12,347 nucleotides of DNA from a virus: the UHGV virus genome UHGV-0179105, one strand, 5' to 3'. Under the pieces are notes generated by a model. The model had not been told where the DNA came from, made no database searches, and saw nothing but the letters and a program-made list of their open reading frames with translations. Position 1 is the first letter of the stretch. Each line of letters opens with the position of its first letter. A program made the translations under genes and the position numbers. Positions 2,523 through 3,459 of this stretch are shown here, piece after piece.

Positions 2523-3152
2523 TTAGTTAAGTAAGTCCTTATCGATGATTTGGAAGTTTGCGCGGTGAATATACAGGGCATGACCGTCAATCATGAGTTT
2601 TGTAGTTTTGGGCAAATCCTCACAGACTGTCCAGTAGACTTCATCGCCGCTGTAAGCGCAGATGGGATCGCCGAGCTGAGATTGAATGACAACAACGACC
2701 GGCTTACCAAAGGAATTTTTATACTGGTTCACAACGTTCGCAATGATGGTGTTATCGCCGAGACTGCCATCGGTTTCGCTGTGAATATCCTGCATCTGGA
2801 AATTAACAGCTGGAGTAAGACCTTCTTCCGAGAAGATGACGGTGGAACCGCAATTACTGATTTGATGGCCATCAACGGTGATCGTGACCACAGAGGACAG
2901 CGTTTTCGTGTAACCCCAACCGGATTCTCCGTTGTACGTATATTCGCGAACCACATTGGAATTCATGTCGATTTTGGAACCAGTGACGGTCATGAACTTT
3001 TCACCGTCGTTGGAGTAAAACTCACAATCATAGGTGTTGCCTGTTATACTTCCGTTAAGGTCGTTGAAATCGCTTTCAAGTTCGGCACAGGAGCATAGGG
3101 AGAGCGCGAGAATGATGGTAAGCAGGATGCTTAAAATAGATTTTGATTTCAT
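2523..3152 (-). CDS. exported protein, probable lipoprotein, 209 aa
   Basis: Track ORF 2523..3152; AGAGG 10 nt upstream of ATG 3152; N-terminus MKSKSILSILLTIILALSLCSCAE = basic n-region, hydrophobic core, then lipobox-like LSLC/LCSC cysteines. Confidence 0.7.
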   Translation of the reverse strand: MKSKSILSILLTIILALSLCSCAELESDFNDLNGSITGNTYDCEFYSNDGEKFMTVTGSKIDMNSNVVREYTYNGESGWGYTKTLSSVVTITVDGHQISNCGSTVIFSEEGLTPAVNFQMQDIHSETDGSLGDNTIIANVVNQYKNSFGKPVVVVIQSQLGDPICAYSGDEVYWTVCEDLPKTTKLMIDGHALYIHRANFQIIDKDLLN

Positions 3153-3168
3153 TTAGTAAGAACCTCTG

Positions 3169-3459
3169 TTACTTTTCTATTTGAATTTCGGTGATGAACC
3201 AATAGTCGGAAAAATTATAGCCGGAGACCCAATAGAGCAGGTTGGTACCTGGGTCGTCCGGGTCATCGTTGCGATGGAAGACGGGGAGTGGTTTATCGTT
3301 AATCATGGCATCATTCTGGTGGAATGCAAAGAATGCGCGGACTTCTTTCTCGGCATTGTCGGTGGCGGCTGAAAAGGATTCAAATTCCTTGGTGGAGGCA
3401 AGAACGGGTATAGCACCACGTTCACAGGATAAAAGCTGCAAGAGGTATAAGTATTTCAT
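3169..3459 (-). CDS. exported protein, possible lipoprotein, 96 aa
   Basis: Track ORF 3169..3459; AAAGG 6 nt upstream of ATG 3459; N-terminus MKYLYLLQLLSCERG has a hydrophobic core followed by an LLSC lipobox-like motif. Confidence 0.6.
   Translation of the reverse strand: MKYLYLLQLLSCERGAIPVLASTKEFESFSAATDNAEKEVRAFFAFHQNDAMINDKPLPVFHRNDDPDDPGTNLLYWVSGYNFSDYWFITEIQIEK

Follow-up and report, generated by a model that had tools for sequence, protein, structure and literature searches.

A DUF5052 lipoprotein gene in a large gut phage: predicted export, chromosomal kinship and a possible role in exclusion

Introduction

The repeat domain of Ltp, a lipoprotein of Streptococcus thermophilus phage TP-J34, is helical, and the Llp protein of phage T5 is a very small outer-membrane lipoprotein of Gram-negative bacteria that plugs the receptor FhuA. 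Ltp is a superinfection-exclusion protein that blocks DNA injection; it combines a serine-rich spacer with a repeat domain whose interaction partner is the tape-measure protein, and its gene is part of the lysogeny module (PMC3952083). Llp is encoded by a lytic phage, made shortly after infection and on its own prevents superinfection (PMC9586334; bioRxiv 10.64898/2026.03.26.714494). Single surface-exclusion proteins anchored in the membrane or at the surface have also been reported from conjugation systems, e.g., Ses of pLS20 and the enterococcal PrgA/Sea1, whose genes are among the first of the conjugation operon (PMC6635565, PMC8557374). Ses, of about 360 aa, is anchored in the membrane by its N-terminus and has not been assigned to a protein family (PMC8557374).

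The current study concerns a metagenome contig of 12,347 bp (ENA ERZ1034818 NODE_385), the whole of which was analysed and is referred to here as the window. The initial annotation had pointed to two adjacent genes for proteins of 209 and 96 aa as a possible exclusion module of exported lipoproteins. The closest described relative of the larger protein is DUF5052 (PHROG 2316), a family of about 200 aa from Firmicutes, with which it shares the full-length profile, the length, an N-terminal lipoprotein signal and a C-terminal motif. It differs from the family in its location, since the window copy is phage-borne, whereas most of the members found here are chromosomal, stand-alone genes. Our literature search returned no papers on DUF5052 or PF16475.

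Results

Layout of the window

The credible genes of the window lie on the minus strand throughout, are tightly packed and encode mostly short and acidic proteins (pI 4.1 to 5.0), and matches to Pfam or PHROG families are nearly absent among them. Both open reading frames singled out by the initial annotation were recovered on this strand at the same positions (Table 1). Each has a plausible ribosome-binding site, which for the 96-aa gene is GAAAGG, 6 nt before the ATG (3459). The two genes are co-oriented, and 16 nt separate the stop of the 96-aa gene (3169) from the start of the 209-aa gene (3152).

Table 1. Features of the DUF5052 locus and of the adjacent upstream gene
Feature	Position	Strand	Basis
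Gene for a 209-aa DUF5052-family lipoprotein precursor (predicted mature protein of 188 aa from Cys22)	2523..3152	-	ORF list; PF16475; PHROG 2316
Predicted signal-peptidase-II signal peptide, codons 1-21 (n-region MKSK, uncharged core S5-L19, lipobox L19-C20-S21)	3090..3152	-	lipobox expression; hydrophobicity; model
Codon TGT for Cys22, predicted N-terminal residue of the mature protein and site of its lipid modification	3087..3089	-	read from sequence; invariant column
AGAGG as ribosome-binding site, 10 nt before the ATG of DUF5052 (3152), inside the 16-nt intergenic gap	3163..3167	-	read from sequence
Gene for a 96-aa acidic orphan protein (pI 4.6), most likely cytoplasmic, outside the lipoprotein feature	3169..3459	-	ORF list

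The 209-aa protein is a DUF5052 lipoprotein

The 209-aa protein matched the Pfam family DUF5052 (PF16475) with an E value of 3.5e-65 and 219.8 bits against a gathering cut-off of 29.4, and the alignment was full length, with residues 5 to 208 on profile positions 2 to 199 of 199. A further match was obtained to PHROG 2316, for which a function is not assigned (E 1.3e-39). The length agrees with the roughly 200 aa of the family, the C-terminal block of DUF5052 (SQ.G.PI..Y.G ... LPKTT..IDGK.LYIHRANFQ) is present, and all of the near-invariant family columns (G161, P163, G169, P181, T184, D189 and R197) are found in the protein. Judged by this profile match, it is a bona fide member of DUF5052, a known but uncharacterised lipoprotein family. 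NCBIfam held no match for it, and the defence profiles of PADLOC-DB gave none up to an E value of 0.1 for this protein, the 96-aa protein and three neighbours. A search of the sequences of solved structures, with the protein itself and with a profile of 42 sequences, returned nothing meaningful, the best hit being CheY (E 0.28).

Lipoprotein signals were assessed by a positively charged n-region, an uncharged hydrophobic core, the pattern [LVI][ASTVI..][GAS]-C and a cysteine at about residues 15 to 35. The N-terminus of the 209-aa protein reads MKSKSILSILLTIILALSLCSC and contains the signal M-K-S-K-S-[ILSILLTIILALSL]-C-S-C22, in which Lys2 and Lys4 are followed by an uncharged core of 15 residues and then by L-C-S-C22; the PROSITE-type lipobox expression (PS51257-type) matches it. 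The Kyte-Doolittle maximum over 19 residues is 2.39, compared with 1.39 or less in each of the remaining 31 window proteins. An alignment of 42 sequences (A2), whose members are 27 to 81% identical to the 209-aa protein, has just two invariant columns, and Cys22 is one of them; this column is also invariant in a second alignment of 15 sequences (A3), and the neighbouring Cys20 is not conserved in the larger one. The strict lipobox expression recovers 42 of 70 full-length DUF5052 representatives at 50% identity, with the cysteine at residues 16 to 31, and most of the others have a near-lipobox (e.g., N-L-T-G-C) or an N-terminal transmembrane anchor. The homologues of Lactobacillus phages and of Lactococcus, Enterococcus and Clostridium plasmids all carry canonical lipoboxes (LGGC, LSGC, LAGC and VSGC). 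Sequence variability within the family is highest in the signal peptide and linker, where the signal character is nevertheless kept, and the mature domain is conserved, which is the usual pattern of lipoproteins. Taken from these alignments, the conservation of the predicted lipoprotein signal is far beyond chance.

Structure prediction with AlphaFold2 and the 42-sequence alignment gave a model with a pLDDT of 86.8 and a pTM of 0.74. It begins with an isolated signal-peptide helix (residues 3 to 20) and a disordered linker of about 10 residues, followed by an all-beta N-lobe (33 to 109), an indel-rich loop of low confidence (about 113 to 135), a short helix (135 to 142) and a six-stranded C-lobe (152 to 204). 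The model strongly supports a mature protein that would be two-lobed and almost all beta, with a more conserved C-lobe that bears the motif LPKTT..IDG..LYIHRANFQ. A fold search against solved structures found no match. Matches to predicted viral structures were limited to two phage proteins (E 1e-10), one of them from Lactobacillus phage SAC12B, and both are probably DUF5052 members themselves; in addition, an 84-aa "lipoprotein" of a Bacillus phage matched one of the lobes.

A kinship to Llp and Ltp, which the initial annotation had named as examples of exclusion lipoproteins, was not borne out, since neither sequence nor fold comparison linked the 209-aa protein to Ltp, Llp, TraT, a hydrolase inhibitor or a nameable binding fold. 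In the Pfam search, it did not match the Ltp family (PF07553). Ltp differs in its serine-rich spacer, which has no equivalent in the linker of the 209-aa protein, and in its fold, the model being almost all beta. The 209-aa protein also differs from Llp: it is about three times larger (188 aa in the mature form), its relatives all belong to Firmicutes, which lack an outer membrane, and solved structures yielded no fold match.

The 96-aa protein and the proposed pair

The initial annotation had read both N-termini as lipobox signal peptides and the two proteins as the only envelope proteins of the window. Both statements hold for the 209-aa protein, with its lipobox, its hydrophobicity and its invariant Cys22, but not for the 96-aa protein, so that one predicted envelope protein is left. 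In the latter, the candidate cysteine is residue 12 and thus outside the range of residues 16 to 31 seen in DUF5052. It follows a stretch of only nine residues (YLYLLQLLS), which includes a glutamine and two tyrosines, and the strict lipobox expression does not match. The best hydrophobicity over 10 residues is 1.46, which is within the range of plainly soluble neighbours (1.25 to 1.89), and in the structure prediction, whose confidence was too low for a fold search (pLDDT 53), residues 4 to 13 form a beta strand within a sheet and not a helix. In the relative P0129, the C-terminal 60% of the protein is kept at 83% identity, and the N-terminus is replaced by a hydrophilic sequence free of cysteine. 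The gene is weakly constrained, with dN/dS values of 0.5 to 0.96 that are based on few substitutions, and it is frameshifted in one phage locus (P0130 in L017). Searches of Pfam, PHROG, NCBIfam, PADLOC and PDB returned no match. The family comprises 10 sequence clusters, all from one phage lineage, and a profile search for remote relatives returned the same 10. Its sequence features indicate that the 96-aa protein is probably a separate, lineage-specific protein of the cytoplasm.

These data bear directly on the suggestion that two exported lipoproteins of 96 and 209 aa together form a two-component exclusion module. Both in the window and in most of the relatives, the genes adjoin each other in the same orientation, and the 96-aa N-terminus does have a short hydrophobic run with Ser-Cys at its end. 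Against such a module stand, besides the position of that cysteine, the short, glutamine-containing core of soluble character, the P0129 variant, and the weak constraint and frameshift of the 96-aa gene, the arrangement of the genes and their ranges. In three of 11 related phage loci (L011, L013 and L016), the two genes are separated by a gene for a 321-aa protein that is radical-SAM-like, with a CxxxCxxC motif and a sub-threshold Radical_SAM match. The 96-aa family, with its 10 clusters confined to the phage lineage, contrasts with more than 4,400 clusters of DUF5052, and in bacterial genome loci, outside the phage group, DUF5052 genes never adjoin a 96-aa homologue. The module is therefore largely refuted, and we regard its existence as highly improbable.

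A large phage with a conserved DUF5052 gene

Relatives of the 96-aa protein were found on seven IMG/VR viral contigs of 90 to 150 kb, five of which have 142 to 150 kb, with a shared gene order, and metagenome contigs of 63 to 140 kb have the same gene order as the window. One of the relatives is labelled Siphoviridae sp. ct96x5. The array encodes a Bro-N/anti-repressor-like protein, whose N-terminus is 57% identical to a protein of the 132.5-kb Clostridioides phage pCD1602_4, as well as a GP88-family protein. Megablast of the whole window against phage and plasmid collections gave no match. It is strongly supported that the window is part of a gut phage of 130 to 150 kb, and the view of the initial annotation that the lipoprotein is encoded by a mobile element was thus corroborated for the 209-aa gene. 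Tyrosine recombinase, reverse transcriptase and PemK-type toxin genes are present in related loci, and the phage is possibly temperate or plasmid-like.

The DUF5052 gene belongs to an array of small genes, more than 30 of them, that all run in the same direction, which distinguishes it from the ltp gene with its place in a lysogeny module and its expression from the prophage; the nearest repressor-like HTH gene in related loci is about 6 kb downstream on the opposite strand. No promoter-like or terminator-like site was found to flank the DUF5052 gene, which therefore probably shares a transcript with the adjoining genes, and in G+C content it does not differ from the sequence around it. For the same two reasons, the alternative of a self-contained moron was rejected. 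None of the 15 related loci (L001 to L008 and L011 to L017) lacks the gene, although many of the neighbouring genes vary. Lysis genes were found neither in the window nor near the DUF5052 gene of the related phage loci.

Compared with the phage relatives, the DUF5052 gene has dN/dS values of 0.08 to 0.13, which reflects strong purifying selection, and a gene-wide sign of an arms race was not seen. The sister phages carry two deep alleles with about 97% and about 75 to 79% protein identity; dS between the alleles is 1.3 to 2.2, while that of the flanking genes is only 0.05 to 0.5. Substitution patterns thus show that the protein is functional and constrained and that the locus has been swapped between phages. 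Such an allele exchange is compatible with a specificity-type gene and equally with ordinary phage mosaicism.

Chromosomal and mobile members of DUF5052

At identity thresholds of 90% and 50%, the DUF5052 family falls into at least 4,440 and 339 clusters, respectively. With each species represented by a single genome, a scan that used the 15-sequence alignment as query revealed 80 loci with identities of 48 to 69%, all of them from Clostridia or Erysipelotrichales, including Agathobacter, Roseburia, Lachnobacterium, Coprococcus, Eubacterium ramulus, Holdemanella and Catenibacterium. Apart from DUF5052, no gene of the window has a convincing homologue at these 80 loci. The chromosomal DUF5052 gene is a stand-alone lipoprotein gene, with an ordinary large-gene context at 50 of 64 assessable loci. 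Its 123 immediate neighbours span 96 Pfam families, e.g., enolase, MatE, RidA, GNAT acetyltransferases and membrane transporters, and mobile-element hallmarks are absent from the most frequent ones. Guilt by association across 70 genome loci provided no recurring neighbour and hence no functional lead. The local gene order is nevertheless stable within genera: five Agathobacter species share the order transporter, DUF5052, enolase and ferredoxin, and in Holdemanella the order is DUF5052, RidA, pyrB and pyrC.

In a neighbour-joining tree, the window copy and its phage sisters nest within the chromosomal clade. The window protein is 67% identical to an Agathobacter copy, and its identity to chromosomal copies of Agathobacter, Lachnospiraceae and Clostridia ranges from 61 to 69%. 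This nesting indicates gene exchange with the host lineage, and its direction, as far as the tree and the identities suggest, was likely a capture of the gene by the phage from Clostridia hosts.

A second deep clade consists of mobile-element copies, which are about 29% identical to the window protein. It includes strictly lytic phages of Lactobacillus plantarum, both siphoviruses (Maenad, Satyr, P1 and P2) and Herelleviridae (Bacchae, Semele and Bromius), as well as L. garvieae, E. faecalis and C. botulinum plasmids, whose copies are 46 to 54% identical across orders. The copies of Maenad and Bacchae (AVH85631.1 and AUV60026.1) are 89% identical, although the phages belong to unrelated families. 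In Lactobacillus phage Maenad, the gene is located about 2 kb upstream of the lysin gene. In the plasmids pCLD of C. botulinum and pLG606 of L. garvieae, DUF5052 is found in an array of small genes that share one strand and include orphan DNA methyltransferases, and these arrays resemble the anti-defence "leading" or establishment regions of conjugative plasmids (PMC11541004, PMC8708921). Plasmid pMP8-1 of E. faecalis has a conjugation operon of the pLS20 type, in which the DUF5052 gene has the regulators on one side and adhesin and secretion genes on the other; on this plasmid and on pLG606, genes of the transfer region for LysM, glucosaminidase, lysozyme and serine-protease proteins come after it. 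The location on pMP8-1 is comparable to that of ses on pLS20; the analogy is positional only, and it concerns the subclade that is about 29% identical to the window protein.

Discussion

With high confidence, the locus can be described as a gene for an exported DUF5052 prolipoprotein with a membrane tether and a two-lobed beta fold, which is embedded in a phage gene array, retained at 15 loci and related to chromosomal genes. Sec would export the 209-aa prolipoprotein. In a Gram-positive host of the Clostridia, a diacylglyceryl group would be attached to Cys22 and cleavage is predicted before this residue, so that a linker of about 10 residues would hold the mature protein on the external side of the cytoplasmic membrane. 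It would be expressed together with the surrounding accessory or early genes, a timing that is suggested by the gene arrangement. The proposed mechanism is that the 209-aa lipoprotein works without a partner under the wall, at the surface of the membrane, and makes the carrier or infected cell refractory to further DNA entry, i.e., superinfection exclusion at the membrane or the DNA-injection step. Ltp provides the best functional analogy for it, and the protein would then be Ltp-like in function and non-homologous. We put this role forward tentatively, as an analogy that may well prove wrong.

The role was proposed because independent phages, including lytic ones, and plasmids keep DUF5052 in accessory or establishment regions, because a membrane-surface protein on a short tether is well placed to disturb channels for injection or mating, and because single lipoproteins exclude in other systems (PMC3952083, PMC9586334). 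The presence of the distant subclade in lytic phages and at the head of the conjugation or establishment arrays of plasmids keeps it plausible. Against exclusion, it has to be considered that the window copy is only about 29% identical to this phage and plasmid subclade, that it nests among chromosomal genes in conserved housekeeping neighbourhoods (enolase; RidA, pyrB and pyrC), and that it resembles known exclusion proteins neither in sequence nor in fold. The chromosomal nesting points to a cellular envelope function that was perhaps borrowed by the phage. The phage copy would accordingly do the cellular job of chromosomal DUF5052, which may be, e.g., to bind an envelope component at the membrane surface or to serve as its chaperone, and would supplement or replace the host protein without any exclusion. 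We consider this the main rival to exclusion and a serious possibility, if one that falls short of being probable. It agrees with the place of the window copy inside the chromosomal clade and its 61 to 69% identity, with the stand-alone chromosomal genes whose synteny is conserved across the species of a genus, with their mostly ordinary large-gene contexts, with the lack of convincing homologues of other genes of this phage at any of the 80 genome loci, and with the strong purifying selection. A borrowed cellular function, however, names no mechanism, and it leaves unexplained both the retention of DUF5052 by unrelated lytic phages and three plasmid families in accessory or establishment arrays and its retention in every related phage while the neighbours vary.

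Exclusion at the point of DNA entry also has to be weighed against control of the wall or of lysis, whereby the lipoprotein would act at the membrane surface by binding or inhibiting a wall enzyme, such as a peptidoglycan hydrolase, and thereby time lysis, prevent lysis from without, or shield the cell from hydrolases that belong to incoming phages or to the conjugation machinery. The short linker in the model would indeed place the domain at the interface of membrane and wall, and the proximity of the Maenad homologue to the lysin gene and of the pMP8-1 and pLG606 homologues to LysM and hydrolase genes fits this explanation as evidence from context. However, the window and the related phage loci have no lysis genes nearby, the fold is unlike known hydrolase inhibitors, and the chromosomal copies are not linked to hydrolase genes, so that we judge wall or lysis control to be improbable.

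If the exclusion role of the 209-aa lipoprotein were true, a function would be gained for a family of more than 4,000 clusters that is common in human-gut Firmicutes, their phages and plasmids, which would bear on the host range of phages, on phage therapy and on how plasmids spread in the gut, and a second type of Gram-positive exclusion lipoprotein, structurally unrelated to Ltp, would be established. The broadest version would make DUF5052 as a whole a family of membrane-tethered exclusion proteins without structural precedent, which phages would use against superinfection and conjugative plasmids against redundant transfer and which gut Firmicutes would keep on their chromosomes as a permanent obstacle to incoming DNA, with the window gene as one phage allele and the two deep alleles as specificity variants. 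We regard this generalisation as unlikely. As it stands, the result is mainly one of annotation: a single lipoprotein gene, likely derived from the host, in a large gut phage, a neighbour whose "signal peptide" was mis-called, and no two-gene module. Experimentally tractable members of DUF5052 are found in Lactobacillus plantarum phages and on plasmids of Enterococcus and Lactococcus.

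Allele replacement at the DUF5052 locus

Comparison with the phage loci L005-L017 showed that the DUF5052 lipoprotein gene exists as two deeply diverged alleles across phages that are otherwise close, and the same is true of the upstream gene for a 79-aa protein. Synonymous divergence (dS) between the alleles amounts to 1.3-2.2 for the DUF5052 gene and 0.9-1.4 for the 79-aa gene, whereas the flanking genes have values of only 0.05-0.5, and this sequence contrast indicates that allele replacement was localised. The counterpart of the intervening 96-aa gene in one IMG/VR phage (L017) is frameshifted, and the product (P0130, 93 aa) has an unrelated C-terminus. 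In other relatives, dN/dS ratios near 0.5-1 were obtained, so this gene may be dispensable or decaying.

In three related phages, the 96-aa and DUF5052 genes are separated by a gene for a 321-aa protein, which has no counterpart in the window. The product carries the motif CPMNCNFCDC (CxxxCxxC), and its match to Radical_SAM (24.5 bits) is below the threshold of 29.5.

Locations of the genes discussed
Feature	Record	Coordinates	Strand	Remarks
GP88 protein gene	window	1513-2145	-	210 aa, Cys-rich; Pfam GP88, E 6e-16
DUF5052 gene	window	2523-3152	-	209-aa lipoprotein
Insertion point of 321-aa gene	window	3153-3168
96-aa gene	window	3169-3459	-
79-aa gene	window	3462-3701
96-aa gene counterpart	L017 (IMG/VR phage)	10001-10287		frameshifted
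321-aa gene	L011 (related phage)	10307-11272		separates 96-aa and DUF5052 genes
321-aa gene	L013 (related phage)	10307-11272		separates 96-aa and DUF5052 genes
321-aa gene	L016 (related phage)			same slot
DUF5052 gene	L009 (phage Maenad)	5938-6552
DUF5052 gene	L010 (phage Bacchae)	5938-6552
DUF5052 gene	L102 (E. faecalis plasmid pMP8-1)	9780-10373		head of pLS20-type conjugation operon

DUF5052 genes in lytic phages and on plasmids

The DUF5052 genes of Maenad, a siphovirus, and Bacchae, a myovirus of the Herelleviridae, share 89% identity, although these two lytic L. plantarum phages are otherwise unrelated; a similarity of this degree implies a recent gene exchange between phages that share a host. 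On the plasmid pMP8-1, the DUF5052 gene at the operon head is followed by genes for LysM, SpaA-like adhesin, coupling and p028-family proteins. Orphan DNA methyltransferases adjoin the DUF5052 gene on other plasmids (loci L098 and L100); in the C. botulinum plasmid pCLD, the gene for botulinum neurotoxin B1 lies about 4 kb away from this setting.

Gene content, lifestyle, and host

The window (positions 1-12347) comprises about 32 co-directional genes, nearly all of whose products are small, acidic (pI 4.1-5.0), and without a family match, and the array resembles a set of early, host-takeover or anti-defence genes. None of the five window proteins tested matched PADLOC, and neither tRNAs nor Rfam elements were found in the window. 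The GP88 gene is also present in sister phages, sometimes at a shifted position.

On both sides of the DUF5052 locus, the sister phages L008 and L101 carry a reverse transcriptase gene (RVT_1, 400 aa) adjoining a ThiF-like gene, together with genes for a tyrosine recombinase, an isochorismatase-like protein, and a PemK-type toxin. Such array genes would suit a phage whose lifestyle is temperate or plasmid-like, and some of them may belong to a retron- or DGR-like element. With 271,628 bp, the L101 record (ENA ERZ1034758 NODE_1) is about twice as large as the usual carriers of 133-150 kb and may therefore represent a concatemer or an integrated copy. A protein of the identical cluster (P0282), located on a 705-kb contig, is labeled Gemmiger formicilis; the G+C content of the window (only about 46%) and the nearest DUF5052 copies, which are from Lachnospiraceae, make this label only a tentative guide to the host.
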